Positions 10,112 through 62,999 of a stretch of DNA of 64,000 bases are shown here, in pieces; position 1 is the stretch's first letter; every line of letters starts with the position of its first letter. A program made the translations under genes and the position numbers. The DNA comes from Bacillota bacterium (GTDB taxonomy: Bacteria; Bacillota; DULZ01): NCBI GenBank assembly GCA_050951405.1, contig JBMNIZ010000008.1:5986-69985 (forward strand), given 5' to 3'. A model generated the notes under the pieces. It was not told the origin of the DNA. It did no database searches and saw only the letters and a program-made list of their open reading frames with translations.

Positions 10112-11182
10112 ATGAAAAGACAGATGCCTTTGTCTACAGGAACAAATTGCGGAAGGGGAACCATCGATGCTCTTTCCTTTCTTATCCGGTACCGGCGGAC
10201 TGATCCTTTTCTTTTGCCGGCATGCGCTGGATCAAAAAAGGACTGGACCAGGGCCGGCCGGAGGGGACTGGAAACCGCCATCAGCCTCTACTCACCGCCA
10301 CTCCCCTAGTGGCCACCCTGACCGGTACCGTCATCACCATGCTCTTCCAGAGCAGCAGCGCCGTCACCGTCCTCACCGTGGGTCTGGTCAACTCCGGCCT
10401 CATGACTTTTGTCCAGGGGCTGGGCATCGTCCTGGGCACCAACATCGGCACGACCTTTACCGTCCAGCTGCTGGCTTTTGAGTTCGACTCTCCTGGCACC
10501 CTGGCTGCTGGTGGGCGGGCTTCTGTTACGCAGCATGGTTTACACCGGAATGACCTCTGGCAGGGCAGTAGGGAGAAACCCTCTCCGGCCTGGGACTGGT
10601 CTTTTGCGGCCTCCACCTGTTTCGTCTCTCTTTTGCACCCTCTGCAAAGCCAGCCCTCTTTTCCTGGGCTGGCTCTCTTCTCTGGGAGACAACTACTCTA
10701 TGGCCCTGGTGACCGGCCTAATGGCCACTGCCCTGCTCCAGTCCAGCACCGCCGTCACCGCCGTCACCATCGTCCTGGGCAGCCAGGGGCACCTGACCAC
10801 TGGAGACCGCTATCGCCCTCATGCTGGGATCAAATATCGGCACCTGCTCCACGGCCCTTCTTGCTTCTTTTAACGCAGCTGCCTGGAGGCCCGCCGCATC
10901 GCCATGGCCCACGTAGTCCTCAACGTCCTGGGAGCCATCATCTTCTTTCCCCTGATCGATTTCTTTGCGGACTGCCTGCGATACCTTTCCCCTCTCCTGC
11001 CCCGCCAAATCGCCCACGGCCATACCCTGTTCAACCTGTCATTTCCTCTCTCCTGGTCCTACCCTTTCTTACCCTGCTTTCGCCCGCCTCATCATCTTTT
11101 TGGTACCGGACAAAAAATAATGGCTGCCGGAATGGCCAGCCCCGTCGTGAGTTATTTTCATAGTAGACCCCCATGCCGCTAG
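10112..11182 (+). pseudogene. Na+/phosphate cotransporter (NptA / Na_Pi_cotrans family), split across three frames
   Basis: Fragments MLFQSSSAVTVLTVGLVNSGLMTFVQGLGIVLGTNIGTTFTVQLLAFE, LLQSSTAVTAVTIVLGSQG and HVVLNVLGAIIFFPLIDFFADCL lie in different frames. The 313-aa ORF has a Pro/Arg-rich out-of-frame tail. Confidence 0.55.
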
Positions 11183-12604: not shown

Positions 12605-12606
12605 CT

Positions 12607-46779: not shown

Positions 46780-48489
46780 CAGACTGTAGACAAAGTCTTA
46801 TGAAATGCAAACCTTGGCCGATCCTTGGTTTGCATTTTCATTTATACATTCCATAATTGCCGTGCGCAAAAAATCTTTGGCAAAAGTGTAAAAAAGCCAG
46901 TAATTGCAGGCATTTTCAGCCCTTTTAACGAAATTATATTATGGGAAAAACCAATACCGCCGGGGTGATGAAAATGCTTGCGAAAAAAGACCGTGAAGCT
47001 GTTAACCAAATGGAAATTGTTTGCATAGACAGCCTGGTTCCGGAAAACCATCTGCTTAGAGCCGTCCAGGAGAGTATTGACTTTCAGCTTCATCTATGAT
47101 GAAGTGAAAGACCTGTATTCAGAAAACCATGGCCGTCCCAGTGTAGATCCGGTTGTTCTAATTAAGCTGTTGATCCTGCAGGCACTCTATGGCATCCGTT
47201 CCATGCGGCAGACCATAGAAGAGGTAAAGGTAAACGTCGCTTACCGCTGGTTTCTGGGATATGGCTTGCAGGAGCAGATCCCTCACTTCTCTACCTTTGG
47301 CAAGAATTACGTGAGACGGTTTCAGGAAAGCGACATTTTTGAAAAAATCTTTGCGCGTGTTCTCGAAGGAAGCCATCAACTGCGGGTTTCTCAACACCAG
47401 CGCCATTTTCATTGATGCCACTCATGTCAAAGCCAGCGCCAATAAGAAGAAGTACATCAAAAAGATGGTCAGGCATCGTGTACATAAATACAAGCGTGAT
47501 TTGCTTTATGAAATTAACGAGGATCGGAAAGCCCATGGCAAGGAACCGTTTGCTGATGATGAGGACGGAGGCAATGATTCCGGAGATGAAGGAGGCACCC
47601 CGGCTGACAGCGGCAAGGAACGAGAAGTCATAGAAAGTACAACAGATCCGGAAAGCGGCATGTTCTACAAGAGTGAAAAAGAGAAATGCTTTGCCTATAC
47701 TGTAACCGTTGCCTGTGATCAGAACAACTTTGTCCTGGGATTAAAAGCAGCTCCCGGCAATGTTCACGACAGCCAGGTTTTCTCCGATGTCTTCCAGCCA
47801 GTCATTGAGACAGCACCCCGAAATCGAGTCTGTAGTTCCAGGATTCCGGATACAAAACCCCGGCCATCTGCCGGGAGATAGTCGAAGCCGGCAAAGACCC
47901 CATCATGCCCTACAAGCGCCCCATGACAAAGAAAGGCTATTTCAGAAAACATGAATTTGTTTATGACGAATACTACGACTGCTACATTTGCCCCAATAAC
48001 CAGATCTTAAAGTACAGCACCACCAACCGCAACGGTTACCGCGAATACAAAAGTGATCCCAAGGTCTGCATCGGCTGTGAGCATAGAAAGAAGTGTACAC
48101 AGAGCAAAAACTTTACCAAAGTGGTTACCCGTCATGTATGGCAGTCCTATACAGAAATAGCCGAAGACCTCAGGCATACCGAACGGGGAAAAGAACTTTA
48201 TCGTAAGCGCGGCGAGACAATTGAGCGTGTCTTTGCCGATGCGAAAGAAAAACACGGGATGCGTTTCACGCAGCTCCGGGGCTTGAGAAAAGTACAACAC
48301 TATCTCACGCTTCTTTTTGCATGCATGAATCTGAAAAAGCTGGCCATGTGGAAGCGGAAACAACGGACATTACCGCCCACAACCTCCCCGCAGCAGGGAG
48401 GTACTCTCTAACATTTCAGCTATTTTATGTTTAAAAGTAAAATGGCCTCTAGGTTTTGCTTCCTAAAGGCCATTTTTGTCTACAGTCTG
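46780..48489 (+). mobile_element. IS1182-family insertion sequence (1710 bp) inserted in the fliC / SLH-gene bidirectional terminator
   Basis: 15-bp terminal inverted repeats CAGACTGTAGACAAA; flanked by 23-bp direct duplication; internal DDE transposase with IS1182-type N-terminus (LVPENHLLRAVQESIDFSFIYDEV) and C-terminus (ERVFADAKEKHGMRFTQLRGLRKV). Confidence 0.75.
46941..48411 (+). pseudogene. IS1182-family transposase, interrupted by at least four frameshifts
   Basis: Continuous homology in alternating frames (46941-, 47077-, 47339-, 47905-); breaks near 47085, 47400, 47830 and 47890. Confidence 0.7.
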
Positions 48490-48512
48490 AGAGCCGGGAA
48501 TTCCCCGGCTCT
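48490..48512. repeat. Right copy of 23-bp palindromic target-site duplication, followed by the T-run of the original terminator
   Basis: AGAGCCGGGAATTCCCCGGCTCT + TTTTTCTTTTC. Confidence 0.7.
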
Positions 48513-48709
48513 TTTTCTTTTCTCTTTTTTCTCCTTTCTCCCGTCATTGTATTTTTATTGTCATAATGCTCCTGGAAGCCTAAACTATGGCGATGGATGG
48601 AAGCTTCCAATCACCGGTTTTTTCACAAAAATCACAACACCGCTCACATCCCGCCTCATTTCCCTTCATGGAAATGATCCTGGATGGACGGAGAAAGATT
48701 CCTTTTTGC

Positions 48710-50230
48710 TTACCGGAAATGGAGGAGGCGGTCCCGGTACTCACTTTTCATCTCCCGCTGCATGTAGTTGATAAAGCGCTGGAGAAAAACGGCGGCCTCG
48801 GCCCGGGACATGGTTTCTCCCGGAAGAACCCGGCCGAAAGCGTCACCGCTGACCAGCCCCATTTCCGCAGCCACATAAATGGCGTCCCTGGCCCAGTAAG
48901 GGATCTCCTGATCATCCCGGAAAGGGGTGGGGCTGGGGTTAAAGGGAGCCAAGCCTTCAAAACCCAGGGCCCGGATCAGGGCGGTGATGGCCTGGGCCCT
49001 GGTCAAGACTCCACCGGGATCAAAACTGCCCGGCCTGGTCCCTTTGATCACACCCGCCTGGCTGACCGCCTTTATTTCCTGATAATAGGGATGATCCACC
49101 CTCACATCCACAAAAAGCGAAATCTCCTTCTCTTCCTCCCGGTTGAATCGGTCAAAGGGATTGAGCGCAGTTTGCCGGCTCTCTTTGGCTGTCTCCATGC
49201 CCGTCAGGCGGGCCAAAGCCCGGGCAAATTCGCCTCGAGTCATGGGCAAGCGGGGTCCAAAGTACTCCCCCCGGGCCGGAAAGGCTTCCAAACTGGCCAG
49301 CTCCAAGATGGGCCCTTCCGCCCAGTGCCCGGAAATATCCCTGAAGAGAGGTACCGGCAGCCTCCTCTGGCTGGGCAGGGTGGTCAAGCGGGTGCTCCCG
49401 CTGACCTGTTTCCTGCTCCGGCCCTTCTCTAGGAAACCTTCTGCATCAAAGCGGGGCAAATTGGCCTCATAGCGCAGAATGCCCTCTTCCTGGATGCTTT
49501 CCAAGTAGCCCCCGGCAAAACTGATGGGAGTGGGTTCATTGGGCTGGTACGATAGCTCCCGGGAACGGTTAACGGAAATGTGGAGCTGGAAAGTACCCGA
49601 CCACTCCTGGGGATATCTTTCCTTATCTTTGATCAGATCCCCGGTAAAGCGGATAATCCCATCCACCCTCTGGGTTTCGGTGCTCCCCCAGGCATGGTCA
49701 TAGCCCACCGTATCCCCCCAGGTCTCCACCACAACAGTGGCCTGATCCTTGCCCAAAACATAAGTCTTCCGCCCGGACCAGTTCCCGCTGAAATAGGCCA
49801 CCGCCGGCTGGTGATCAACCAGAGTGGATTTGGAAAACTGGTAATCCTTCAGGGTGTAGCGATCCTTCCCTACGGTCACGGTTTCGCTGATCCGGTCCAC
49901 CGAAGTCACATAGACAGTCTGCTTGTCCTCCATTTTCTTCTCTTCACTGCTGCTGAAGGAAACAGTACGATTTAATTTAATGGAACCGGTACTGTCGCTG
50001 AGCTTGTAACTCAAGTTGGTCTGATAGCCCCCTCCCCGGCCGGCCCGCTGGCTTTTCTGCACGGTACCGGTCAGGATCACCGGCTCTCCGGTGAGAAAAG
50101 TCAGCTCTCGGTATTCCCTTTCGTTGGAGATGCCTTCTTCCAGATGGAGCAGGTATTCTGTTCCCAAGGCAGGCCCGGCCCCAAGCCAGAACAGGAGCAA
50201 ACTGCAGAAAAAAATTACCGCTTTTCTCAT
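48710..50230 (-). CDS. Secreted cell-wall protein with three C-terminal S-layer-homology (SLH) domains
   Basis: 506 aa; signal peptide MRKAVIFFCSLLLFWLGAGPALG; SLH repeats FRDISGHWAEGPI..., FVDVRVDHPYYQEIKAVSQAGVIKG..., FRDDQEIPYWARDAIYVAAEMGLVSG... Confidence 0.75.
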   Translation of the reverse strand: MRKAVIFFCSLLLFWLGAGPALGTEYLLHLEEGISNEREYRELTFLTGEPVILTGTVQKSQRAGRGGGYQTNLSYKLSDSTGSIKLNRTVSFSSSEEKKMEDKQTVYVTSVDRISETVTVGKDRYTLKDYQFSKSTLVDHQPAVAYFSGNWSGRKTYVLGKDQATVVVETWGDTVGYDHAWGSTETQRVDGIIRFTGDLIKDKERYPQEWSGTFQLHISVNRSRELSYQPNEPTPISFAGGYLESIQEEGILRYEANLPRFDAEGFLEKGRSRKQVSGSTRLTTLPSQRRLPVPLFRDISGHWAEGPILELASLEAFPARGEYFGPRLPMTRGEFARALARLTGMETAKESRQTALNPFDRFNREEEKEISLFVDVRVDHPYYQEIKAVSQAGVIKGTRPGSFDPGGVLTRAQAITALIRALGFEGLAPFNPSPTPFRDDQEIPYWARDAIYVAAEMGLVSGDAFGRVLPGETMSRAEAAVFLQRFINYMQREMKSEYRDRLLHFR

Positions 50231-50281
50231 GGCGAAACCTCCAGAGAATTCATTCCCACCCCGAAATCCCGATCAAAACCA

Positions 50282-52795
50282 TTAATAAGCTATCTTGAAC
50301 ACCAAATAAGCTGTCGTCAGGTCGTGAACAAAGTAAACTGTATCCCCCGGCTGCAGCTCTTCCGCCCGGATGAAAGAATGATCGTCAAAGACCAGGGCTT
50401 TCTCCAAATCCAAGACCAAATCGTCCGGGTTGGGAGTCCAGCGTTGATAGCCCTCGCTCCAGTCTTGAATTCGCTCCAGCCTGACCGTAGCGGTAACAGG
50501 GTCCGCTTCTTTCACCCGGCCGATGCTGGTCTTCATTACCGCCGCAAGGTTCCGGTGGAGGGACAAGGCCAGGATGTTCCCTTCCTCATCGGTGATCGCC
50601 AGCACATACCGCCTTTTATATTCCTCGCTCCAGCGGCTTTCAGCCAGATCCTCAGGGGAGATGAAACGGGCTGTTCGCACCGCATCCAGAATAAGGCCGG
50701 CCCTGGTCAGGACAAGCTGCTGGGTCCGGCGGCTTCGCGCCACCCGTTCCCATTGATTGTTTTGCAGATAATCGGCAGAGCTGATTTCCAGGGATGATTT
50801 TTCCACCCGATCCAGGCGGCCCCGGTAGACTTGCCAAGCCTTGGGAAGAAAATTCCGGGAAAGCATGATGAGAACGGATTCCCCGCCGGAAATCCTCTCC
50901 CCTTCCAGAAAAAGGTGTTCTCCTTGGTTGAAGTCAGCCGGATCCACCAGCTTACCGTCTTTGACAGCGATAGTCCCGGCTCTGAAGGAAAATATTTCTT
51001 CCCGATCGGACAGGGTTAACTGCTGCAAGGGCCAGGAAATCCGGTCAATAAAACCGTTGTAGCTTTCAGCCGGCCCCTCCCCCACTTTGAGCTTCAGCCC
51101 CTGGGGACTGCCGTAAACGGAAGAGAGGGCCAGATAGACTTCCGCACCTAACCGGCTTTTCCGCAATTCCTCCAGGGTCAGCTCTTTTTCTCCCAGGTAT
51201 AATTCCGCTCCCGGCGCCAATTCGATCAATTCCAAGTCCCGGCGGGGATACCAAAGACCGTAAAAATATTCCTCGGGGCCGCTCAGGCTGAGCCTTGATC
51301 CTTCCGGATAAACCCCTTCCAGGCGGCCCCTGACCAGTAAGTCCACCGCCCCTAGGGAAGGAGATACTATAATTCTCGCCAGCTCTCCCCTATCCAGGTC
51401 CGCTATCTCCAATTTCACCCGGTCCCCGACGTTCAGATCATCCAATCCCCGGATCCGACCCTCTCTTACCACTTGGGTGCCGGCCGTCAGCCGGTAGACT
51501 TTTTCCTGGCCGTTTTCCAAAAGATATAAGCGGTCCCCGTCCAGGGACTTGACCCGGCCGGTCTTCACCCCGGAACGGGCTGCGGCATAACCGGGCAAGA
51601 GGGAACCCAGGGTCCCTTCCACCGCCACTACCGCATTATCCTGGACCTTGACCCGGATTTCCTGCCCCACAAGCAGATCTTCCAGCCCTGCCGGGCGCCC
51701 GTCGATGGTCACGGAAAGGCGGGCATTAAGGGGAAGGATTCTCTCCCGCCCGGAGGAGATTTCCTTAAAAAAGAGAGTTTTTTGATCGGCACTGATGCCG
51801 GACAGCAGTCCCTCCAGCCAACCGCTTGCGGCCGGGAAAACAGCGGCAAAAGCAACCGAACCGGTTGGATCGAGGAAAAGCTCCAGCCGGTCGCCGGTTT
51901 TCAAAGCAGAAGCCCGGCTCAAACCTCCGTTTTTCAGGACCGGAAAACCGGCTCCCTCCGGAAAGAGAACCCGGATATATTCCAGTCCGTCTAATTCCAC
52001 TTCCAACTCCGTCCAACTGCCGGCCTGCCAAAAACTGCGCTGTCCCAGCACTCGGCCGGAAAGAAAATCCCAGCCCCGCCTGGGCCCGGCCAGAGGAGAA
52101 ATTCGATCTAAAATAGCCGACATTTCTCCCCGGGTCAGATGGCCCCGCGGGTGAAAAGTACCGTCCCGGTAACCGCTCATGATCTTTTGCTGGAGGAGGG
52201 GCTCAATGGCCGTTATATAGCTGGGCTTAAAATCCTGCCAGTCGGAAAAAGAATAGACGGACCGGATCCGGTCTCCATAAACCGGCGGGATCTCCAGGGC
52301 CCGAGCAAGCCAGAAGGCCGCCTCCTGGCGCTGGGCGGGCTTGGTCCTGTTCTGATCAAAAGCCCCCTGTTCTTCCGGTAAAATGATCCCCCGATTTTTG
52401 GCCACTTGAATGTAGCCCAAGGACCAAAGTCCGGCGGCGCTAGCGGGCGGCTGCGGCAACCCTGCTCCTATCAACTCGCCGGCTCTCTGGGCTTCCGCCT
52501 CCAGGCCGGCAATCCGCAGGACCAGGGCCAGGGCCTCTTCTTTGGTCAAAAGGCCGTTGGGCTGGAATTTACCGCCCCCCACACCCTGAATCACTCCCTG
52601 GGCGGCCATCCGATAAATGGGAGCAGCGGCCCAGTGGCCTTTGATGTCCTGGAAATCCATCTGGCGGTAAAGCTGGGCGGCATAGGGAGCCTCCCGGTAA
52701 ACGGGAATCTCCGCCCCCCAGGCGCCGGAAAAGACCGGCAAAAGCAGCAGGAAGATGTTGATGATGAAGACAGTGAAGATGGCTTTTCTTTTCAT
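50282..52795 (-). CDS. Cell-wall protein with three N-terminal SLH domains and a large C-terminal beta-rich domain
   Basis: Signal peptide MKRKAIFTVFIINIFLLLLPVFSGAWGAE; SLH repeats FQDIKGHWAAAPIYRMAAQGVIQG..., ...WSLGYIQVAKNRGII..., FSDWQDFKPSYITAIEPLLQQKIMSGYRDGTFHP... Confidence 0.75.
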   Translation of the reverse strand: MKRKAIFTVFIINIFLLLLPVFSGAWGAEIPVYREAPYAAQLYRQMDFQDIKGHWAAAPIYRMAAQGVIQGVGGGKFQPNGLLTKEEALALVLRIAGLEAEAQRAGELIGAGLPQPPASAAGLWSLGYIQVAKNRGIILPEEQGAFDQNRTKPAQRQEAAFWLARALEIPPVYGDRIRSVYSFSDWQDFKPSYITAIEPLLQQKIMSGYRDGTFHPRGHLTRGEMSAILDRISPLAGPRRGWDFLSGRVLGQRSFWQAGSWTELEVELDGLEYIRVLFPEGAGFPVLKNGGLSRASALKTGDRLELFLDPTGSVAFAAVFPAASGWLEGLLSGISADQKTLFFKEISSGRERILPLNARLSVTIDGRPAGLEDLLVGQEIRVKVQDNAVVAVEGTLGSLLPGYAAARSGVKTGRVKSLDGDRLYLLENGQEKVYRLTAGTQVVREGRIRGLDDLNVGDRVKLEIADLDRGELARIIVSPSLGAVDLLVRGRLEGVYPEGSRLSLSGPEEYFYGLWYPRRDLELIELAPGAELYLGEKELTLEELRKSRLGAEVYLALSSVYGSPQGLKLKVGEGPAESYNGFIDRISWPLQQLTLSDREEIFSFRAGTIAVKDGKLVDPADFNQGEHLFLEGERISGGESVLIMLSRNFLPKAWQVYRGRLDRVEKSSLEISSADYLQNNQWERVARSRRTQQLVLTRAGLILDAVRTARFISPEDLAESRWSEEYKRRYVLAITDEEGNILALSLHRNLAAVMKTSIGRVKEADPVTATVRLERIQDWSEGYQRWTPNPDDLVLDLEKALVFDDHSFIRAEELQPGDTVYFVHDLTTAYLVFKIAY

Positions 52796-53007
52796 GGGCC
52801 TTTTCGCCTCCAATTTGCGGTTACCAAAACCCTATCGGGGAGCGATGCGGTCATCGCCCCTTGCGGGCAAGGACGGAACCCTGCCCCTACAAATTTTTAC
52901 GTAATTTGCGGGATCCATGTAGGGGCCGGCGCCCACGCCGGCTCGCTTTAGGACCCGAAAGGATGCCCCCAAATTCCCACGACTGTATTCCCACATCCGA
53001 CGAACGT

Positions 53008-55296
53008 TCATTGGGCTACCAACATCACCCAAATGGGGCGCATGGTTTTCAGGGTTAAACGGGGCAGGTACCGGTCCTTGACCGCAGCCGCCGCTTCCCA
53101 CCGGCCTGCGTCATCATTGTATAGATAAAGAACTGCCTTTTCTCCCGGGCCCATCAAAGACGGCGCATAATCCATGGACAGGGTGATTTCCTGGTAGAAC
53201 AGCCCCTGGGGCAGGATTTCCTTGTCTTCGAACAGCTGCCAGCCCACGCTGTAAACCGGGCTGATGATCCGGCTGCCCCGGGGCAGCTTTTTCAAAGCCC
53301 TTTCCGCCTCCGCCTGTCCCAGGTCCCGGATCAGGATTTCCCCATAGGCGGAGGAACTGCCGGTCAAGACCGGCAAGAGGCTGTAAGGAGGCACTTCCAA
53401 CACCAGCTTGCCGGTATCGATGGTGAAAGACCAGACCGCCTGCTGCAAAGCATCCCGGCTGATCCGCACCGTCTTCAACGGTATTTTTTGGTAAGCAGGA
53501 GGAGTGAAGTCCACCTGATAAGCGGCCAAGGCCAAGGCCCGGGCAGAGGAAATCACCGCCGTCAACCGTCCCGTCTCGGACTGGACCAGCATCTCTTCCG
53601 GCTCCAGCTGGGGAACTGCCTTTTCGCCCCTGTCCGTCCTGGCATTGTCTTCATAGCTGAAATCTGAAACTCCCAGCTCATTGACCGCCCTCACCTTGAA
53701 ATAATAACGAGTGTTGGGCTGAAGACCCGTGGCATAATAAACTGTCCGGATGGTCTGGTCCAGGAAACGATAAGGGCCGCTGCGGGAATCGCTGATATAA
53801 ATTTCATAGTAATTGGCGAACTCCACCGGGGGCCACTGAATCTTAATAGTCTCGTGGTCCGCCCGGTCCGTCTCCAGCCAGTCCGGTGCCTCCGGCGCCA
53901 TACGGGGGCGCAGATAGAGAAAACCCTGGGGCAGGGCGGCCCAACCCCCGTCGGGGTTTCTCACCCTTACTTCCTGCCAACCCGGTTCACCGGGAGGAGT
54001 AAGAAAAGTCAGGGTCTGGGCATCCTGGACCTGCACCTCCTGGGCCGGCCTGCCTCCCACGAAAACAAGAGCGCCTTCTTGCAATCTTTCGCCCCGCAGG
54101 GTGACTCTCGTCCTTCCCGTACTTTCACCCCGATCGGGATCCAGGCCGTAGATGACGGGAAGTTCTATAGCATAGTAAGTAAATCCTTTCGCCAAAGTGG
54201 CCGCTCCCTGATCCGGGTTGATGACGGTGACATCTTTGGGGCCTTCCTCTCCTGGAGGCGTCAGGGCTCTAATGGTTTGATAATTCTCCACCACCACTTC
54301 CCTGGCGGGCACTCCGCCAATGTAGACCAGGGCCCCCGGCCGGAAATCGTTCCCGCTGATGGTAATAGCCGTTTCCCCCACTGCAGGACCTTTGTTTGGT
54401 TCCACCCGAAAAATCTGCGGCTCGCTGTCAGGCTCTTCATAGGTAAAAGCGGCGGTCAATGTATGGGTTCCCCCGTCGTAATTGGTCACTGTGACATCTT
54501 TCGGTCCGGGGGAGTGGGGCGGGATTTTCGCCCGGATGGTGTTCCCATCGATGACTTCCACGGACAAGGCCGTAATCCCGCCAAAATAGACCTCCGCCTG
54601 GTCACGAAAATCTTCACCGATGATCGTGACGATGATATGACCGATCACAGGCCCCCGGGAAGGCGATAGTTCCTTGACTACCGGCCGGCTGTCAGGAAGC
54701 CGGTAACGAAAGCCCTGTTTCAGCAAGGCTTCGGCTCCATCCGGGTTGACCAGTCTCACATCAAAGTAGCCGGTCCTCTCCTGGGCCGGTACTTTGACCC
54801 AAACCCGCTCCTGGCTTTCCACCCGCAGGTCTTGAGCCGGTACTTCCACCTCACCGAAGAAAACCCTGGCCCCTTCCCGGAAATCTTCTCCCAAGAGATA
54901 AGCCTCCGTACCGGCCACCCCTTGGCTGGGGTTGATGGAGACGATTTTTGGATTGGAAGTAACGTAGGTAAAAGCGTTTTTCAGAGTAAAGCTGCCCAAA
55001 TGTTCTCCGGTATTCATCACGGTCACATCGGCGGGGCCTTCCCTCCCCGGCGGGGTGATCACCCTGAGCTCCTTGTAACTGAGGAGCTCCACCGCTGGAG
55101 CCGGGATCCCGTTGAAAAACACCTTGATTCCTTCCCGGAAATCCTTACCGTGGATCACTACCGGAGTCCCCCCGTCCACCGGCCCCCGATCCGGTTCCAG
55201 GGAGAAAACCACCGGTTCGCTTTGGGGGGCCAAATATTCCACTCCCTGGGGCAGATGGGCGTTTCCCCCCGTCATCGTTGACCACGATAAGGTCAA
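53008..55296 (-). CDS. C-terminal part of a giant IPT/TIG-repeat surface protein (IPT repeats, then a fibronectin type III domain and a C-terminal domain); out of frame with 55145..58858 at a poly-C tract
   Basis: Repeats of ~85 aa with PxxGPxxGGTxVTIxGxxF signature. FN3-like YYEIYISDSRSGPYRF...TRYYFKVRAVNELG. Its N-terminus (NAHLPQGVEYLAPQSEP) continues the repeat that the upstream ORF ends in. Confidence 0.7.
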   Translation of the reverse strand: MTLSWSTMTGGNAHLPQGVEYLAPQSEPVVFSLEPDRGPVDGGTPVVIHGKDFREGIKVFFNGIPAPAVELLSYKELRVITPPGREGPADVTVMNTGEHLGSFTLKNAFTYVTSNPKIVSINPSQGVAGTEAYLLGEDFREGARVFFGEVEVPAQDLRVESQERVWVKVPAQERTGYFDVRLVNPDGAEALLKQGFRYRLPDSRPVVKELSPSRGPVIGHIIVTIIGEDFRDQAEVYFGGITALSVEVIDGNTIRAKIPPHSPGPKDVTVTNYDGGTHTLTAAFTYEEPDSEPQIFRVEPNKGPAVGETAITISGNDFRPGALVYIGGVPAREVVVENYQTIRALTPPGEEGPKDVTVINPDQGAATLAKGFTYYAIELPVIYGLDPDRGESTGRTRVTLRGERLQEGALVFVGGRPAQEVQVQDAQTLTFLTPPGEPGWQEVRVRNPDGGWAALPQGFLYLRPRMAPEAPDWLETDRADHETIKIQWPPVEFANYYEIYISDSRSGPYRFLDQTIRTVYYATGLQPNTRYYFKVRAVNELGVSDFSYEDNARTDRGEKAVPQLEPEEMLVQSETGRLTAVISSARALALAAYQVDFTPPAYQKIPLKTVRISRDALQQAVWSFTIDTGKLVLEVPPYSLLPVLTGSSSAYGEILIRDLGQAEAERALKKLPRGSRIISPVYSVGWQLFEDKEILPQGLFYQEITLSMDYAPSLMGPGEKAVLYLYNDDAGRWEAAAAVKDRYLPRLTLKTMRPIWVMLVAQ

Positions 55297-58200
55297 CTTT
55301 GCCCGGTGGGTGGGGAGGAGTGACGGCGATGATTTTTCCTTCGCTCAGCAAATCCACTTGCGGGGAAGCCAGACCGTCAAAGTAAACTTTTACTCCTTCC
55401 CGGAAATCCGCACCCAAGATGGTCACCGGCTGTCCTCCCGCAGCGGGAACCTGAGTGGGATCCACTTGAAAAATCTGGGGCTTGCTGGCAGGATGTTTAT
55501 AATTAAAAGCTTTGGGTAAGATGGCCGTCCCCCCGTCGGGATTGATCACCCGCACATCGGCGGGACCCACCTCCCCAGGGGGAGTAGTGGCATAAATCTT
55601 GTCATGGTATACCTGCAAGTCAAAGGCCTCTTCATCGCCGATAAAGACCCGGGCTCCAGGCCAAAAGTCGCTGCCGGTAATCACCACCCGGGTTCCTCCC
55701 GCCTTGGGCCCTAATTCCGGGAAAATACCCGTAATCCTGGGCTTGGTCAAAGGATCTTTATACTCAAAAGCTTCCGGCGCCACCGCTGTTCCCGTATCCT
55801 CCAGGTTGCTGACCGTCACATCCACCCGTCCCGGAGGATGGGGAGGAGCAGTGACCCGGATCTCCTCCGGGCTGATGACTTTGACACTTTCCGCCCTTTC
55901 CCAGCCAAAGTGAACCACGGCATCGGGAGCAAAGCCCTCCCCCCGGATAAAGACCTCTGTACCTCCCTTGGTCTCCCCGCTGTCAGGAAAAACTCGATGA
56001 ATGACTACCTCCTGCCGGGGTTCTTGATATAAGAAGCCCTCCCAGGAGGCGCTGCCCCCGTCCACATTCTCCACCCGAACTGTTACTTCCCCGGCCGCTC
56101 CTGCCGGCAGCCGGGCCTTGATCAGGTTCTCATGGAAAACCTGGCAGTCGGCCGCACTGCTACCAAAGACGACGGAAGCTCCCGGGTAAAACTGGCTCCC
56201 GGTAATGGTGATGATGTTGCCCCCACCAGTGGAGCCTTTGGCGGGAGACAGCTTCTCGATGGTGGGATTGGAATAATAGAAAAAAGCGTTCTCCAAAGTG
56301 GCGCTCTTGCCGATGGGGCTGACCACCGTCACCGGCTGGTAACCCGGTAATCCCGGAGGGGATACAACCTTAATCCTGGTCTCATCTTCCACCACCACTT
56401 CAGCGGCGGGCACTTCCCCAATGAAAACCGCGGAACCGGCCACAAAATTCATTCCTAAAATAAGGAAGGCGGTGCCGCCGATCACCGGCCCCCGGGCCGG
56501 GTCTCCATTCTCCAGGATAACCCGGTCAATGATTGGGTCCACGCTGGGTATGAGATATTGAAAACCATTTCGGTAAATATATTCCCCATACCGGTTTGCC
56601 ACCACCACATTTTTCCAGCCTGGGGTGAATCTGGGGGTAACGGCGGTCAAGGCCGTGCCGAAGGAATCCGCTTCCAATTCCACTTCCGTGGCCTCATAGC
56701 GAATGATGTTTTCCGGATTGGAGGCATCTTCCAGGTAAATCCAGATCAGGGTATCCTCATCGAAGTTGGCACCGGTAATCCTAATCCTGGTTCCCCCGGC
56801 CACCGGACCGAATTCCGGAGTTACACTGGTAATGATCATGCTCGTTCCCCGGTAAACGAAACCGTTTTTCAAAATGGCCTGCCCCAAGTCCTGGTTGATG
56901 ACGATCACATCCACCGGACCGGCTACGGAAGCAGGAGGCGTGACCGCCCTGATGGAGCCGGTTTCCACGCTCTGGACCTGGGCCTGGTTGGCCGGATCAA
57001 TTTTACCCAAGTAGACCTTCAAGCCGCTGCGAAAATCGACCCCTTCGATTCTGATGATGCTGCCGCCGGCCAGGGGACCGGTATTGTCTCCCGTCTCTTC
57101 ATTGAAAACTCTATCCACCCGGGGCTGACTTTCGGGAATCCTGTAAATAAAGCCTCCCGGCAGGGTATATCTTTCCAGGGAAATCACTTCTCCCTGGCCA
57201 TCCAAGCGCCTGATTTCGATCATCACATCCTGGGCCGTTTCCAGCTCTCCCTCTTCCACATAACCTCCCGGGGTAACGGCGGTAATGGTGTTCGTGTCCA
57301 AAACTTCCACTTCCCCGGCCTCGTTGCCGCCGATGAAGAGCCCCACTTGTGCCTGCTGGGGAACTTCCTCCGGCAGGGGGAAATTAACTCCGAACACAGT
57401 GATGGGAGTCCCTCCCTCCACCGTCCCCCGATCGGGAGTGACGCTGGTAATGCGGACCATTTTTTCCGGGATTTTATAGGTGAAGCCGTCAGGCACGGTC
57501 ACTGTACCCCCGTCAGGGTTGGTGATGGTGACATCCTTGGGGCCGGCAGTATGTTCGGGGCTGATGACCACCATCTGAGTGGGGGCCACGAAAGGTTCTC
57601 CGTCCACGTCCTTTTTAATTTCGGCTGTCTTATTGCCGATTTTTACCACCGGCAGAGAACCGTCAACGGCTATCCGAAAATCTTCCCCCCGGATGGTCAC
57701 TTCCGTTCCCCCTTTCGTGCTGCCCACATTGGGAGTGATTTCATGAACCTGGGGCTGGCTCTTCCCGGTAGTAAAAGTAAAACCGCCCACTACCGTCACT
57801 CCTTGTTCAGGGTCAGCGGGATTTCGCACCGTGACATCGGCTGGACCTAAATTGCCTTCGATAATTTTTACCAGCAGAGTACCTTCGGCTATTTTGGTAG
57901 CATCAACAATTTCCACCGGAAACCCGCCGATGAGCACCTGGGGCTGATGGTATTGTTCAGGATCAAAAATCTTGTCAAAATTAGTGCCCTTGATGGTGAT
58001 CAGATCGCCCACCCAGCCATAGTTGGGAGTGATGCTGGAAATGCTGGGCATGATAATATAGCGAAAAGCACCGGGCAGGGTATCCTGGGCTCCATCGGGA
58101 TTGATGACGGTTACGTCTTTGATCTCCTCCACAGTGCCCGGAGGCACCACGGCCTTGATTTCCCTTTCATGGATGTAGGTGACGCCGCCGGCAAAATTGG

Positions 58201-58858
58201 CTCCCACCCTCACTTGGGCAGCCCGGTCAAACTGGTTCCCCTCTTTGCCGGTAATGGTAATCACCGTTCCACCGGCGCCTTTTTGCGGGACCACGCTTTC
58301 CAAAAGAACGGTGCTTTTTTCGTAGGCAAAAGCACCTTCCAAGGAAAAACTACCCCCGTCCGGATTCACCACCTGGACGGTTTTTGCCCCCAGGCTCCCT
58401 CCCGGGGTCACCGCCCTGACCTGACCGGCATTCAGCCATAAAACAGACCGGGCCGCTTTGCCGTCGATATAAACTTGAATTCCCGGCTGGAACTGTTCTC
58501 CCAGCAATTCTATCTCTGTGCCTCCCACCGAACTGCCCCGGGGAGGATTAACGCTGTCAATCCGGGGAGAGCTAAAAAAAGCATAGCTCTCCGCCAAGAC
58601 TGCCCACTGACCGTCCGGATTTTCCACCCGCACATCAACAGGGCTCCCCTGGGAAGGATGGGGAGGCGTTTTGACCAAGATTTTATCTTTTTGCACCTCT
58701 ATCACTTCGCCGGCCAAACCGCCAAAAGTTACCTTGGTTTCGCCGACGGATCCCACAACAAAATTACTTCCGTAAATGGTGACGAGAGTGCCTCCGCTGC
58801 TGGGGCCCCGCTGAGGACTCAAGCCGTTCAAAACCGGTACCGGCCCTTCCTGGGCCAA
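55145..58858 (-). CDS. N-terminal part of the giant IPT/TIG-repeat surface protein (at least 13 IPT repeats). The likely true start is TTG 58936, which gives a lipoprotein-type signal peptide interrupted by an in-frame TGA at 58874..58876
   Basis: Upstream in frame: GGAGAGAGGG-TTG MRKKFTAIVLIFSFLLGCFP-TGA-IIGSSLAQEGPVPV. The joined 53008..58936 reading frame is ~1,975 codons. Confidence 0.7.
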   Translation of the reverse strand: MAQEGPVPVLNGLSPQRGPSSGGTLVTIYGSNFVVGSVGETKVTFGGLAGEVIEVQKDKILVKTPPHPSQGSPVDVRVENPDGQWAVLAESYAFFSSPRIDSVNPPRGSSVGGTEIELLGEQFQPGIQVYIDGKAARSVLWLNAGQVRAVTPGGSLGAKTVQVVNPDGGSFSLEGAFAYEKSTVLLESVVPQKGAGGTVITITGKEGNQFDRAAQVRVGANFAGGVTYIHEREIKAVVPPGTVEEIKDVTVINPDGAQDTLPGAFRYIIMPSISSITPNYGWVGDLITIKGTNFDKIFDPEQYHQPQVLIGGFPVEIVDATKIAEGTLLVKIIEGNLGPADVTVRNPADPEQGVTVVGGFTFTTGKSQPQVHEITPNVGSTKGGTEVTIRGEDFRIAVDGSLPVVKIGNKTAEIKKDVDGEPFVAPTQMVVISPEHTAGPKDVTITNPDGGTVTVPDGFTYKIPEKMVRITSVTPDRGTVEGGTPITVFGVNFPLPEEVPQQAQVGLFIGGNEAGEVEVLDTNTITAVTPGGYVEEGELETAQDVMIEIRRLDGQGEVISLERYTLPGGFIYRIPESQPRVDRVFNEETGDNTGPLAGGSIIRIEGVDFRSGLKVYLGKIDPANQAQVQSVETGSIRAVTPPASVAGPVDVIVINQDLGQAILKNGFVYRGTSMIITSVTPEFGPVAGGTRIRITGANFDEDTLIWIYLEDASNPENIIRYEATEVELEADSFGTALTAVTPRFTPGWKNVVVANRYGEYIYRNGFQYLIPSVDPIIDRVILENGDPARGPVIGGTAFLILGMNFVAGSAVFIGEVPAAEVVVEDETRIKVVSPPGLPGYQPVTVVSPIGKSATLENAFFYYSNPTIEKLSPAKGSTGGGNIITITGSQFYPGASVVFGSSAADCQVFHENLIKARLPAGAAGEVTVRVENVDGGSASWEGFLYQEPRQEVVIHRVFPDSGETKGGTEVFIRGEGFAPDAVVHFGWERAESVKVISPEEIRVTAPPHPPGRVDVTVSNLEDTGTAVAPEAFEYKDPLTKPRITGIFPELGPKAGGTRVVITGSDFWPGARVFIGDEEAFDLQVYHDKIYATTPPGEVGPADVRVINPDGGTAILPKAFNYKHPASKPQIFQVDPTQVPAAGGQPVTILGADFREGVKVYFDGLASPQVDLLSEGKIIAVTPPHPPGKVDLIVVNDDGGKRPSAPGSGIFGPPKRTGGFLPGTGSGAGGRGDSGSDPR

Positions 58859-58962
58859 AGAACTACCGATTATTCAAGGGAAACATCCCAACAGAAAAGA
58901 AAAAATCAAGACTATTGCTGTAAACTTTTTTCTCAAAACCCTCTCTCCTTCCCAAACCCAGA

Positions 58963-59003
58963 AAACTGCTACCCCCAAACCCTTGCTGGCGGGTAGCAGT
59001 TTA
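58963..59003. terminator. Rho-independent terminator after csrA (AAACTGCTACCC...GGGTAGCAGTTTT), overlapping the csrA stop
   Basis: 10-bp stem, T-run on the transcribed (minus) strand. Confidence 0.65.
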
Positions 59004-59252
59004 CCGGCCCTGATTCCCTTCCCCGGCCGGCGGGCGCAAACTTTCCAATCCCGCCAGCAATTGGGGGCTGATTCCCGCCGACTCCTGGTTTTGCCTTTTG
59101 ATGGCCTCATAAACCTCCAGGCGGTGTACGGAAACATGGGCAGGGGCTTCGATGCCTATTTTCACCTTGTCTCCCTCAACAGAGATCACGGTCAAAAAAA
59201 TGTCTTCTCCAATGATCAAAGTTTCCTTGGGTTTTCGCGTTAAAACCAGCAT
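59001..59252 (-). CDS. csrA: Carbon storage regulator CsrA (flagellin translation repressor)
   Basis: MLVLTRKPKETLIIGEDIFLTVISVEGDKVKIGIEAPAHVSVHR. Confidence 0.9.
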   Translation of the reverse strand: MLVLTRKPKETLIIGEDIFLTVISVEGDKVKIGIEAPAHVSVHRLEVYEAIKRQNQESAGISPQLLAGLESLRPPAGEGNQGR

Positions 59253-59255
59253 TTT

Positions 59256-59720
59256 CTATCCCCCTGCCCCGCCGGCCTGGGAGCCCTGATTGGTAAAAAG
59301 CAAGTGTTTCGTGTGGTAATCGGTTCCGTAGAGGATATACTGCTCACCCCGACGGCTGGCCAGGTTAATCACCAAAGGTCCGATTAAATTGGCGGTCATA
59401 TCTCGCACATCAGCGGAAGGAACGGTGACAATCACATAGACTGCCACCTGCTCCCTTTTTTCAACGGCCAACTTCTTCCTGATCTCTTCATCCAATTCCA
59501 CGGTATAAGAGGGAAAGAAAAGAAATGGATCGGTGAGAAGAAAAGCCACTTCCCCGTCCTCAACAGACTGCAGCCAGTAAAAAGCCGGGTTGTTTTCCAG
59601 GGGAAGCACCAGGTAATCCTTCAGGTGCTCAAAGCCAAAAAGACCTCCGGCAAAATGAATGAGGTCTTCTTTCTCATATGCCAACAGGCCGAAACGGCTT
59701 GTTTCGATCTGCAATTGCAA
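59256..59720 (-). CDS. fliW: Flagellar assembly factor FliW (CsrA antagonist)
   Basis: 154 aa, FliW family; immediately upstream of csrA. Confidence 0.9.
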   Translation of the reverse strand: MQLQIETSRFGLLAYEKEDLIHFAGGLFGFEHLKDYLVLPLENNPAFYWLQSVEDGEVAFLLTDPFLFFPSYTVELDEEIRKKLAVEKREQVAVYVIVTVPSADVRDMTANLIGPLVINLASRRGEQYILYGTDYHTKHLLFTNQGSQAGGAGG

Positions 59721-59735
59721 CCCCTCCCCTCTGCC

Positions 59736-60629
59736 CTATCTGAGAAAGTCCAGCAGGGACGGCTGCATCACCTTGGCCCCGGTCAACAGGGCCGCCTGGT
59801 AAACATATGCCTGCATGGAATAATGCATGGTTATTTCCGCCAGGTCAATATCTTCCAGTTTGGATAAAAGTTCCGTCACATTCACCTGGTTTTCCTCTGC
59901 CCGGGCAATGGCCAGTTCCATGCGGCGGCTTTTAGCCCCCAGGACCGCTCTCTGGGAAAGATTGTGATCAATTTGCTTTTCAATATCCTCAATGGTGGAC
60001 TGGATAGCATGGGTATCATCGTTTTCCAGGGAATTTTTGAGAGCGATCAGGGCTTCAAAGGTAAGGCTGACCCCGCCAACCACATCAAAGGCTTTTTCCC
60101 CGTCAAGATTGATGTCGATGGTGACGCCGGGCGAAACCTCCCACTGCAAGCTTTCATTGTTGCCCGTATAGACCACACTGTCACCCATGCGCTGAAAGGG
60201 AAGATCGGTAGTTTTCGTGCCGGCAAAAATATAACGGCCGGCGTAACTGGAATTGGCCACCTGGATCAGGTGGTCAATGAGCTGATCCACTTCCTGGGCG
60301 ATGGCCTCCCGGGACTGTTGGGGCAGGGTGTCATTGGCCCCGTAAACAGCCAATTCCCGGGCTCTCTGGAGGATTTCATTGGCATTGTCCAGAGCCGTAT
60401 CACAGAAATCCAGCCAGCTTTTTGCATCTTTCATGTTCTTAATATGCTGCTCTTGTTCCGTGAAAGTGCTCCTGATGGTGAGAGCCTGGGTCACCCGGAT
60501 GGGGTCGTCGGAGGGACGGGAGACAACTTTTCCCGATGACATCTGATCCTGGGATCGTTGGAGTATGGATAAATTACGATTGAGATTTTGCAGTACCGTG
60601 TTGACAAGCATTTTATTGGTGACTCGCAT
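59736..60629 (-). CDS. flgL: Flagellar hook-associated protein 3 FlgL
   Basis: Flagellin-like N- and C-termini (MRVTNKML..., ...MHYSMQAYVYQAALLTGAKVMQPSLLDFLR). Confidence 0.85.
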   Translation of the reverse strand: MRVTNKMLVNTVLQNLNRNLSILQRSQDQMSSGKVVSRPSDDPIRVTQALTIRSTFTEQEQHIKNMKDAKSWLDFCDTALDNANEILQRARELAVYGANDTLPQQSREAIAQEVDQLIDHLIQVANSSYAGRYIFAGTKTTDLPFQRMGDSVVYTGNNESLQWEVSPGVTIDINLDGEKAFDVVGGVSLTFEALIALKNSLENDDTHAIQSTIEDIEKQIDHNLSQRAVLGAKSRRMELAIARAEENQVNVTELLSKLEDIDLAEITMHYSMQAYVYQAALLTGAKVMQPSLLDFLR

Positions 60630-60640
60630 GCTCTTCCCTC

Positions 60641-62131
60641 CTATCTCTTGATGCTGAGAATGGTCTGAATGATTTCGTCCAGGGTCATGATCACCCTGGC
60701 TGCAGCCTGATAGGCTCTCTGATACTGGAGCAGGTAGGCCATTTCTTCATCCAAGGAAACGCCGGAAACAGTTTCTTTCCGGTTTTCCAACTGGTTGACC
60801 AGGGCTTCCTGGTTGGTAGTCATCCGGCCGGCCTCATGGGCGGCTACTCCGATCCGGGAAATCAAGTCATTGTAATAACGATCGATGGTGGTGTTTTTCA
60901 ATTTTTCTCCGTCGCTGATGACGGCGTTTTTCAGCTGAGCGATCCGCAAGGCCACTTCACCGTTACCTTTGTTATCCGGATCAGCCGAAGCACGGATCCT
61001 GCTCACATCCTCCTTGATCAGATCATGAACGTCTAAATCGGCGGCGCCGCTGCCGACGAAAAACTGATCCACTTCCTGCTGGCCGTTTAAATCCCAACCC
61101 TCCTGGTGCAATTTATTCAGTTCCCTCATCAAGTCCCGGGCCAATCCGTCAATATCCTCCAAATAAGACATGGCCAGGTCCCTGGCCGCCATCAGACCGA
61201 ACATCTCTCCGTCAGTAATGGCCACTGAATTCCCCAGGAGAGGAGGGCTGCTGCTTCCGTCTTCCACCCACTTGAAGTCATTATCCGCGCTGGAATAAGC
61301 GATTTCCCGGACATTAACGGGCTGGTTCACATCCAGCAACAAATGCTCCGCCTCTTTGCTTTTCCCCAGGTAAATCCTGATCTGCCCGTCGGGAACCCGG
61401 ATAATGGCACCTCCGGTGGTGGGGCGGTCCACCAGGTTTTCTTCAATGGTAAAATCCACCAACTTGGCCAGTTCATCCAAAAGCAGGTCCCTTTGGTCCA
61501 TCAGATCATTGGGAGAATCACCGGCTAGAACAATATTGGCGATCTGTTTATTTAAACCGTCGATTTGCCGGGCCAGGGTATTCACCTGCCCGGCCTTAAT
61601 GCCCGCCACCGTTTCCAGATCGGTGCGGATATCATCCATTTGGCGGTAGGTATGGCGAAAAGCTTCTGCCAAAGCAATGGAGGTCTCCCGCGCCGTAGTC
61701 CGGATGGGGGAGTTTTCCGCATTTTTGCTCAGTTCCTGCCAGGCAGTCCAGAACTGGTTAAAAAGAGCGCTGAGCCCGGTCTCGGAGGGCTCCATGAATA
61801 CCGTTTCCACTCTTTTTAAAACTTCTTCCCTCTGTTCCCACTGGCCCATAGAGCCCAGCTCCATCCGGATCTGATAATCTAAAAACTTATCCCGGATCCG
61901 GCGGATTTCATTCACATCCACTCCCGTACCCAGCTGCCCTGCACCCCCGGGCCTGTTTAAAGAAGGCACGGGAAAAGGCGCAGAGGCTTCCATGATCACC
62001 TGCTGGCGAGTATAACCGGGAGTATTGGCATTCGCTATATTATGCGCGGAAGTATTCATCGCCTTTTGCTGGGCGAAAAGGCCCCTTAAAGCCGTGTTAA
62101 AACCGAAGAAAGTACCTGACACTCGTTCCAC
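60641..62131 (-). CDS. flgK: Flagellar hook-associated protein 1 FlgK
   Basis: 496 aa; NIANANTPGYTRQ rod-type N-terminus, C-terminal LLQYQRAYQAAARVIMTLDEII. Confidence 0.9.
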   Translation of the reverse strand: MERVSGTFFGFNTALRGLFAQQKAMNTSAHNIANANTPGYTRQQVIMEASAPFPVPSLNRPGGAGQLGTGVDVNEIRRIRDKFLDYQIRMELGSMGQWEQREEVLKRVETVFMEPSETGLSALFNQFWTAWQELSKNAENSPIRTTARETSIALAEAFRHTYRQMDDIRTDLETVAGIKAGQVNTLARQIDGLNKQIANIVLAGDSPNDLMDQRDLLLDELAKLVDFTIEENLVDRPTTGGAIIRVPDGQIRIYLGKSKEAEHLLLDVNQPVNVREIAYSSADNDFKWVEDGSSSPPLLGNSVAITDGEMFGLMAARDLAMSYLEDIDGLARDLMRELNKLHQEGWDLNGQQEVDQFFVGSGAADLDVHDLIKEDVSRIRASADPDNKGNGEVALRIAQLKNAVISDGEKLKNTTIDRYYNDLISRIGVAAHEAGRMTTNQEALVNQLENRKETVSGVSLDEEMAYLLQYQRAYQAAARVIMTLDEIIQTILSIKR

Positions 62132-62142
62132 CTCGCCTGCTC

Positions 62143-62592
62143 TTAAACACTCTTATCGATGACAGCCTTGATGGTGGTCTTGGCTTCCAGGCTGCCATCG
62201 GGTTGGTAAACAGCTTGCCCTCCCCCCAGGGCATTCATCACTTTCTGCACATAAGCAAGGGACTGCTTGATCAAAAGGCTGTTCAATTCGTTCAATTCCT
62301 GCAATTCCCGGAAATTTTTCCGCAAGATCTCAGCCAGTTTCGTAAAGCTTTCCGGTAAATCCGGCTGCTGCTTGATCAATTCCTCCAGGCTGGCCTTCGG
62401 CTCCAAGCCCAAGATATTCTGGAGTTTTTCCAGGCTGGCCAGCCGTTTTTGCTCCAGAGCCTTTAGCTTTTCACCGCAAAACTGCTGTTTTTGGGTAATC
62501 TCCAGCAAGCGCCCGAAATCATCGTTGGTGAGGGCTTCCAGCTCCTCTTGACCCCAGCGCAGTAGCTCTTCCACCAAGCGGTTTTGCTCCAT
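62143..62592 (-). CDS. flgN: FlgN-like flagellar export chaperone (start assigned at internal ATG after flgM)
   Basis: Coiled-coil 149 aa between flgM and flgK. Confidence 0.55.
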   Translation of the reverse strand: MEQNRLVEELLRWGQEELEALTNDDFGRLLEITQKQQFCGEKLKALEQKRLASLEKLQNILGLEPKASLEELIKQQPDLPESFTKLAEILRKNFRELQELNELNSLLIKQSLAYVQKVMNALGGGQAVYQPDGSLEAKTTIKAVIDKSV

Positions 62593-62638
62593 CAAAATTT
62601 CTTCTAAAAGGGATAACTCCGCACGCACTTTTTTCACC

Positions 62639-62935
62639 TTATTCCTTTTCAGCTCGCAGGGCATCCAGTATTTTTTGCGCCAAATGCTCCGGTGCCACCC
62701 GGTAAGTCTGGTCCGCCAGCTGCTTTTTGATTTCTGCAATTAAAGCCTCGCGCACTTCCGGCAATTCTTCCACGGCCCGGGCCAATTCCCGGACCTTTTG
62801 CGCCTGTGCGGAAAGTTCCACTTTATCCCCGGCGTAGGATCTGATCTCCTTTTTTTCCTGACTTGCTTGGGAGGCCTGGTAAATCTTGAAAGGATTAACC
62901 GGCGGTTGTCCGGTTATTTTCATTATTTCCACCAC
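62639..62935 (-). CDS. flgM: Anti-sigma-28 factor FlgM
   Basis: 98 aa; C-terminal VREALIAEIKKQLADQTYRVAPEHLAQKIL. Confidence 0.8.
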   Translation of the reverse strand: MVEIMKITGQPPVNPFKIYQASQASQEKKEIRSYAGDKVELSAQAQKVRELARAVEELPEVREALIAEIKKQLADQTYRVAPEHLAQKILDALRAEKE

Positions 62936-62957
62936 CCTACCTGACCTTCTAAGAATA

Positions 62958-62986
62958 ATATCGGCAAAAGAGGCAACATACTTTAG
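62958..62986 (-). promoter_or_regulatory. Sigma-28 promoter for flgM-flgN-flgK-flgL-fliW-csrA: TAAA-N16-GCCGATAT
   Basis: Minus-strand CTAAAGTATGTTGCCTCTTTTGCCGATATTAT, ~25 nt upstream of flgM. Confidence 0.6.
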
Positions 62987-62999
62987 AGGCCCCTCCCTT

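Follow-up and report, generated by a model that had tools for sequence, protein, structure and literature searches.

The stretch of DNA analyzed here, hereafter the window, comprises 64,000 nt of contig JBMNIZ010000008.1 (positions 5,986 to 69,985 of the forward strand; assembly GCA_050951405.1), part of a metagenome-assembled genome (MAG) labelled 'Bacillota bacterium', and it carries on its minus strand two long open reading frames (ORFs) whose products are rich in IPT/TIG domains. The upstream ORF (55145..58858, 1,237 aa) holds the signal-proximal half, and the downstream ORF (53008..55296, 762 aa) lies in the adjacent frame. The two overlap by 152 nt; an earlier reading made from the letters alone (the sequence-only reading) had given the same coordinates with an overlap of 150 nt, and had proposed that both ORFs belong to one gene broken by a frameshift at a CCCCCC run and by a TGA inside its signal peptide. 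Near the junction, ...KVDLIVVNDDGG-KRPSAPG... is encoded in the upstream frame, which meets its stop at 55145 (in a longer reading, ...PPGKVDLIVVNDDGG, followed by the non-repeat sequence KRPSAPGSGIF... as far as that stop). The downstream frame resumes with ...GG-NAHLPQGVEYLAPQSEP..., the longer reading of which, ...GGNAHLPQGVEYLAPQSEPVVFSLEPDRGP..., is the next TIG repeat. Because it is the sole spot where both readings make sense, the frame switch was placed in a run of six G (C6 on the plus strand) at 55265-55270, which has one G more than every other assembly. When one G was deleted from this run, a single frame of 1,975 codons was obtained (53008..58936, minus strand), in which the TGA at codon 21 is the only internal stop, in agreement with the position proposed for the switch.

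The reconstructed gene begins at a TTG (58936-58934), preceded on the minus strand by a Shine-Dalgarno sequence, AGGAG (58949-58945), that was read directly and is separated from the start codon by an 8-nt spacer; the good ribosome-binding site (RBS) claimed earlier is thus present. From this TTG, translation runs MRKKFTAIVLIFSFLLGCFP-TGA(58876-58874)-IIGSSLAQEGP. The later in-frame TTGs picked by gene callers (58858, and another giving a product that starts with MNGLSP) have no Shine-Dalgarno motif. In the public annotation of the MAG, the upstream ORF is MGI6552544.1 (1,228 aa, ending ...GGKRPSAPG...SDPR) and the downstream ORF is MGI6552543.1 (741 aa), both on the same 129,697-bp contig. 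Exact look-ups with the mechanically called ORFs gave no match, their start codons differing from those of the called genes.

Pfam searches detected IPT/TIG domains in both halves, with 13 stretches in the upstream half (E = 1e-144) and 5 in the downstream half (E = 3e-61). The uninterrupted 1,949-aa allele found in other assemblies (P0130) matched PF01833 (TIG) over 18 stretches (E = 4e-203; 658 bits against a cutoff of 20.9), and NCBIfam NF058597, the 'choice-of-anchor Z repeat', was matched over 12 stretches (E = 3e-94; 309 bits against a cutoff of 30). When the repaired protein was used as the query, orthologues of 1,984-2,047 aa encoded by single ORFs were recovered, with alignments spanning 97-100% of the query. 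The nearest, P0002 from Clostridiales bacterium PH28_bin88, is only 52% identical, followed by P0003 (51%) and by several Moorella-type and other Bacillota proteins at about 40%; all of these orthologues have an ordinary N-terminal signal peptide. The scan of genome contigs found no close relative and a single unrelated match of 28% identity, and the scan of metagenome contigs added one further assembly (L028) and two unrelated loci. Because both halves match Pfam IPT/TIG and full-length single-ORF orthologues exist, a chance juxtaposition is excluded: both ORFs belong to a single ancestral gene of about 1,975 codons that encodes a giant surface protein of the IPT/TIG kind, and on this point the sequence-only reading was right. 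The repaired protein consists, in order, of the signal peptide, 18 IPT/TIG domains, a fibronectin type III (FN3) domain (53656..53889, minus strand) and a C-terminal domain of about 200 aa (53011..53616, minus strand) without a Pfam match. Structure prediction suggests that this last domain is a beta-sandwich with a GAIN_B/ZU5-like fold, and the protein terminates one residue past its last strand. The gene product is predicted to be a Sec-exported, rod-like surface or extracellular protein.

The in-frame TGA (58874..58876, minus strand) lies within the signal-peptide coding region (58853..58936, minus strand; 28 codons, MRKKFTAIVLIFSFLLGCFP-stop-IIGSSLA/QEGP), which aligns with the signal peptides of the orthologues; within it, the stop falls in the hydrophobic or the cleavage region. 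The comparison of the whole window covered 22 loci of 10 other assemblies. Around the start, a stretch of 150 nt that includes the TGA is identical in all eight assemblies covering the site, namely the window, L001, L003, L004, L005, L006, L024 (GCA_012512425.1) and L028 (LSQX01), which stem from at least three sequencing projects. The TGA is a real nonsense codon, fixed in the sampled population. A sequence error, one of the options left for it by the sequence-only reading, is therefore not upheld, and the TGG at 58874 that had been named beforehand as the finding that would speak against that reading occurs in none of the eight. In a residue-for-residue alignment, RKLVAIAVIWGLIFSLIPGITIPSLA/ADP of P0003 faces KKFTAIVLIFSFLLGCFP-stop-IIGSSLA/QEGP of the window, so that the TGA stands opposite a Gly codon (GGT) of P0003; no Cys is aligned with it in P0002-P0011. 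The TGA presumably arose from a Gly codon by a single GGA-to-TGA change. Although the n-, h- and c-regions are recognizable, the region does not encode a functional signal peptide as it stands, codon 21 being TGA in eight of eight assemblies. In the 90%-identity protein cluster, the signal peptide is missing from all nine members, which gene callers start at MAQEGP or MNGLSP. As to the kind of signal peptide, the LLGC and the AxA-type site pointed out earlier are both present, and LLGC fits a loose lipobox. Because its Cys is not conserved (it is missing in P0002, P0003, P0004, P0005, P0010 and P0011), whereas the AxA-type end is conserved in the orthologues (SLA/Q, ALA/A, AWA/A), a type cleaved by signal peptidase I is more likely than the lipoprotein type, and the earlier lipoprotein-type label is doubtful.

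Since all eight assemblies have the stop codon and the 1,949 codons behind it nevertheless stay open, one may ask whether UGA is recoded, either as selenocysteine or efficiently as Trp, Gly or Cys, with the help of a 3' hairpin and perhaps so as to regulate export. UGA is the leakiest stop in Bacillota, and the organism has at least one selenocysteine-UGA gene, an hdrA-like gene with the motif TLDCSA-U-ISTPKM; this evidence for selenocysteine decoding is indirect and consists of the in-frame TGA at ...CSA-U-IST... in L020 and at 7832-7830 in the window. A hairpin (58832..58871, minus strand), at the place where a SECIS element would be expected, begins 3 nt past the TGA and comprises 15 bp, a 5-nt bulge and the loop AGGAA, with TTG 58858 in its inner stem. 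Its folding energy of -19 kcal/mol (z = -2.5) is unexceptional, being equalled or surpassed in 10.5% of the 51-nt windows of the gene. It has no counterpart in the orthologues and no match in Rfam; the hairpin is probably incidental. Moreover, the orthologues have Gly or other residues at the aligned position and neither Cys nor selenocysteine, a selenocysteine in a cleaved signal peptide would have no chemical role, and TGA is the commonest true stop in the window. Recoding thus appears improbable, and the earlier judgement that a stop inside the signal peptide is unlikely to be selenocysteine agrees with the residues found in the homologues. Two related possibilities were set aside. Genome-wide reassignment of TGA was ruled out, TGA being the ordinary stop of 37 of the 89 long minus-strand ORFs in the window, and short +1 or -1 slips around CCU-UGA-A were ruled out by inspection, the other two frames reaching TAA or TAG within 2-5 codons.

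The frameshift behaves differently in the same comparison. At the tract, five of the five other DNA assemblies (L001, L003, L004, L005 and L006) have G5 and read in frame, and P0132, a partial protein of GCA_012512425.1, is also in frame across the site, so that the window's G6 is contradicted by six of the six other assemblies of the same population (five by DNA and one by protein), for which many independent assemblies exist. The JGI metagenomes 3300053716, 3300061563, 3300064082 and 3300062814 encode an uninterrupted product of 1,949 aa, all four with G5. A Logan contig (SRR31065934) differs from window 48463-64000 (15.5 kb) by no mismatch and by two 1-nt insertions or deletions (indels), both in G runs of the TIG gene. 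One is the G5, in frame, against the G6 at 55265-55270. The other lies in a G4 run (54128..54131, minus strand) that is in frame in the window and reduced to a frameshifted G3 in the Logan contig, one of five assemblies, and is thus itself an assembly-private indel. Indels private to the window cluster in three patches (7032-8587, 10091-12913 and 46847-48396), where they are mostly extra bases and are accompanied by dense single-nucleotide polymorphisms (SNPs). Outside these patches, the window is 99.97-100% identical to the other assemblies, and 55265 is the only window indel contradicted by every other assembly covering the site. The extra G is private to this MAG. Because all other assemblies have G5 and the MAG has dense private indels elsewhere, we rate it as a private error or variant. 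It is most likely a consensus error; a genuine private variant of that sample is the main alternative and is less likely. That it is an error rather than a variant we infer from the comparison of the assemblies.

If both lesions were real, decay would have begun with the TGA that killed the gene and continued, in the MAG's lineage, with a genuine +1 insertion of a G. With the TGA fixed, selection on the remaining ORF may be relaxed; beyond the three messy patches, the 64 kb contain no window-private indel but the G6, which lies in the TIG gene, and in the same gene the Logan assembly has a private 1-nt deletion of its own. Such a succession of events is unlikely, although clearly the strongest competitor of a consensus error, given that the six other assemblies all have G5 and that the MAG's dozens of private indels break conserved genes such as hdrA. 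The private indels of other assemblies in motB, fliA and cheR, which are presumably needed, likewise point to assembly noise and not to decay. An ENA protein (P0137), considered as a third independent frameshift, was dropped as noise; its error-ridden contig, with a coverage of 1.3x and 101 gaps in 4.8 kb, illustrates the noise in some of the data.

Two further explanations concern the G run itself. A homopolymer located exactly at the frame switch of a surface-protein gene could be a slipped-strand contingency tract that turns the giant adhesin on and off, as the sequence-only reading had considered, and two assemblies do deviate from the rest at G runs in the TIG gene. Yet the tract is merely 5-6 nt long in a window that contains 25 G/C runs of six and 100 of five, it encodes the D-G-G of the conserved TIG motif NDDGG, as do many similar runs in the gene, and its length does not vary among the six other assemblies, G6 being found in this MAG only. 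Since the gene is already off at codon 21 everywhere, a switch further downstream would have no phenotype. We regard phase variation as very improbable. Programmed +1 ribosomal frameshifting, by which the two ORFs would be joined at the slippery-looking GGG GGG, would accord with the downstream frame being +1 relative to the upstream one, but a programmed shift would be conserved, whereas the junction is in a single frame in every other assembly and in all orthologues. The in-frame G5 alleles exclude it, and we give it practically no weight.

Taken together, these results favor the view that the locus holds one giant gene with a real, fixed TGA and with an extra G private to the MAG, to which we assign a probability of about 0.72. 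As a disabling mutation, the TGA is reproducible in independent data (eight of eight assemblies), and the frameshift is not (one of seven). The three options offered earlier, phase variation, decay and sequence error, accordingly divide by site: the frameshift is an error or private variant, and the TGA reflects decay or a leaky stop. Judging from the sequence, ribosomes that load at the good RBS and TTG 58936 would terminate after 20 codons, and the full exported protein would be made only by occasional UGA readthrough; a product started anew at TTG 58858 or at another later in-frame TTG, all of which lack a Shine-Dalgarno sequence, would have no export signal. An exported product could plausibly arise only if near-cognate tRNAs read the UGA at a low level, as is known to happen in Bacillota; for B. 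subtilis, a readthrough of 6% for catA86-TGA is cited in PMC7918605. The gene would then have been recently inactivated or strongly down-tuned across the whole sampled population. The TGA would be a case of ordinary recent gene inactivation or of a leaky stop, and neither lesion needs a new mechanism.

Several points weigh against this view. G6 could be the genuine majority allele in the MAG's own sample, and a long-read or hybrid origin of the MAG is merely suggested by its error pattern and by contigs that span the insertion sequence (IS) element. The 1,949-codon ORF past the TGA is still fully open in at least four assemblies. An open downstream ORF fits either a very recent inactivation or continued selection, under which the TGA would be tolerated or read through, and with 0-2 SNPs per 10 kb the nearly clonal population does not discriminate between them; in the TIG gene, only 2-3 SNPs distinguish the assemblies, among them a G-to-V change at 53276 in L006 and a D-to-A change in P0134. 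Finally, the organism decodes selenocysteine elsewhere and a hairpin follows the UGA, which makes recoding formally possible. Along the same lines, the UGA at codon 21, fixed across bioreactor populations with the downstream codons intact, might be a translational throttle, tolerated or selected, that is read through at a low or regulated rate, either by a near-cognate tRNA or, the organism being one that decodes selenocysteine, with help from the 3' hairpin. We hold this to be a long shot; if true, it would mean that a costly 210-kDa surface protein of the flagellar locus is exported only in small amounts or under particular conditions.

If the TGA and the private extra G are taken as above, the public annotation as two IPT/TIG proteins (MGI6552543.1 and MGI6552544.1) rests on one base that no other assembly has, and inferences from this MAG that are based on frameshifts, such as pseudogenes or phase variation, require read-level support. 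The fixed nonsense codon, for its part, implies the loss or near-silencing, in this bacterium, of a very large surface protein retained by its relatives.

The TIG gene is located within the late flagellar cluster, where the gene order in the window is flgM-flgN-flgK-flgL-fliW-csrA, the TIG gene, two genes for proteins with SLH (cell-wall-binding) domains, an IS element and hag/flaG/fliD. The first SLH-domain protein is encoded immediately downstream (50282..52813, minus strand; 843 aa as a mechanical ORF; Pfam SLH, E = 1.5e-21) and is followed by the second (48710..50230, minus strand; 506 aa; Pfam SLH, E = 1.3e-26). This conserved cassette spans 48710-58936 of the window (minus strand), 285-10388 of L025 and 10001-18556 of L026. 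In both L025 and L026 an SLH gene of about 840 aa follows the TIG orthologue (51-52% identity), and the second SLH gene (about 505 aa) is shared by the window and L025. The TIG gene of L026 lies within the late flagellar cluster, after flgK-flgL and before fliW-csrA. The contig of L025 starts just upstream of the TIG gene, whose conserved neighbors there are both SLH genes; sugar genes of the NeuB/DegT type come next. The giant protein is presumably anchored on the surface via its SLH neighbors. Should these side observations hold, a TIG + SLH + SLH cassette in flagellar loci would be of interest for surface display in Gram-positive bacteria.

A terminator-like hairpin (58966..58999, minus strand) lies between the csrA stop and the RBS of the TIG gene. 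It reads CTGCTACCC-N15-GGGTAGCAG followed by TTTT, with a 9-bp stem and a 15-nt loop, and was missed by the consensus terminator scan, its loop being longer than 8 nt. Because this hairpin fills the interval between the csrA stop and the RBS, there is almost no room for a separate TIG promoter. The sigma-D/sigma-28-type promoter TAAA-N15-16-GCCGATA has three exact matches in the window, where 0.36 are expected by chance: upstream of flaG/fliD (45328-45354, minus strand), upstream of the flagellin gene hag (45464-45489, plus strand) and upstream of the flgM-flgN-flgK-flgL-fliW-csrA operon (62959-62985, minus strand). In this exact-match scan of the window, no sigma-D motif was found directly upstream of the TIG gene, and a sigma-70 scan of the region gave matches at the level expected from shuffles.

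The comparison with other assemblies also disclosed private indels far from the TIG gene. An hdrA-like heterodisulfide-reductase selenoprotein gene (window 6425-8416, minus strand) has about 18 private single-base insertions and about 120 SNPs, which scatter its coding sequence over all three frames; the gene of GCA_012512425.1 occupies one ORF of 659 codons, whose sole in-frame TGA lies in the motif already mentioned. In the patch 10091-12913, numerous indels and SNPs set the window apart from all other assemblies. The ORF of the Na/Pi cotransporter there (10222..11163, plus strand) remains open, with 313 aa against 309 aa elsewhere, and at the fdhD site no ORF of at least 100 aa is left in the window, against 264 aa elsewhere; real divergence and consensus error may be mixed in this patch. 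The DDE_Tnp_1 IS element (46847-48396) is present as three ORF fragments (47077..47415, 47339..47881 and 47905..48411). The transposase encoded at the same site in JGI 3300053716 is intact (505 aa), and the two sequences differ by 89 mismatches and 10 extra bases; the short-read contigs L001 and L004 end at the IS element.

Other data sets have private indels as well. Compared with the window, JGI 3300053716 (L007) has private 1-nt indels at 17453, 21309 and 21854 that truncate cheR, fliA and a PilZ-domain gene, and Logan SRR31065934 (L013) has one at 30918 that truncates motB. Indels confined to a single assembly are thus frequent in these data and not peculiar to the TIG gene. At window 20995, close to the 3' end of fliA, the window and JGI 3300053716 both lack one nucleotide that two other JGI assemblies have (235 against 237 aa), a hint that one sample, or two closely related ones, gave rise to the MAG and to the JGI 129-kb contig.

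Among known phenomena, the extra G resembles the split genes that homopolymer or indel consensus errors produce in metagenome assemblies. As in those cases, a one-base, assembly-private change in length turns one ORF into two annotated coding sequences, and the same contig has further indel-dense patches. The difference is that here the error is a probable one, judged from a comparison of assemblies.

As for the protein, the closest characterized analogue that we found is CmoA of Paenibacillus sp. NAIST15-1, a secreted protein of 1,064 aa with a vWFA domain and eight TIG domains, on which movement on hard agar depends (PMC5072692). It is encoded at the edge of a flagellar cluster, beside flaG/fliD/fliS, and acts outside the cell (PMC5072692). 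The likeness is one of architecture and location, and the two need not be orthologues: both are large Sec-secreted proteins with tandem IPT/TIG domains, and the window gene lies between fliW-csrA and flagellin/flaG/fliD. Unlike CmoA, the window protein has 18 TIG domains, an FN3 domain, a GAIN/ZU5-like C-terminal domain and two SLH-protein neighbors, and Pfam detects no vWFA domain in it; in addition, its gene is interrupted and has no sigma-D-type promoter directly upstream.

The C-terminal domain invites comparison with the surface proteins bearing a MAIN (microbial GAIN) domain, in which Bacillota are enriched (Brogan & Rudner 2026, bioRxiv 10.64898/2026.05.12.724683). They resemble the window protein in their large size and in their layout, in which a signal peptide and adhesion-type domains (Ig-like, FN3) precede a GAIN_B-like beta-sandwich located close to the C-terminus. 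The defining feature of MAIN is an HX(S/T) autoproteolysis motif in the last beta-turn (bioRxiv 10.64898/2026.05.12.724683), which is missing here, the turn before the last strand being MRP in the window and xPG in 22 orthologues. Nor does a sortase, cell-wall or SLH anchor follow the domain in the window protein, SLH domains being carried by the separate neighboring proteins. Membership of the MAIN class was therefore rejected in spite of the GAIN_B-like fold, both the motif and the anchor being absent. The domain, lacking the autoproteolysis motif, is predicted from its sequence to be non-cleaving, and a non-cleaving GAIN/ZU5-like C-terminal domain would, if these side observations hold, be of interest for work on GAIN and MAIN domains of microbes.

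The nearest relatives of the window protein are uncharacterized proteins of about 2,000 aa, annotated as 'IPT/TIG domain-containing' or 'large repetitive', from Moorellales, Thermosediminibacterales, Syntrophomonadaceae and related Bacillota (for example P0002, and P0011 of Neomoorella humiferrea). They share its length, domain order and C-terminal domain, with 39-52% identity over 95-100%, and P0002 and P0003 have the same SLH neighbor. What sets them apart is that they are intact single ORFs with complete signal peptides, whereas the window has the TGA and the extra G found only in the MAG.

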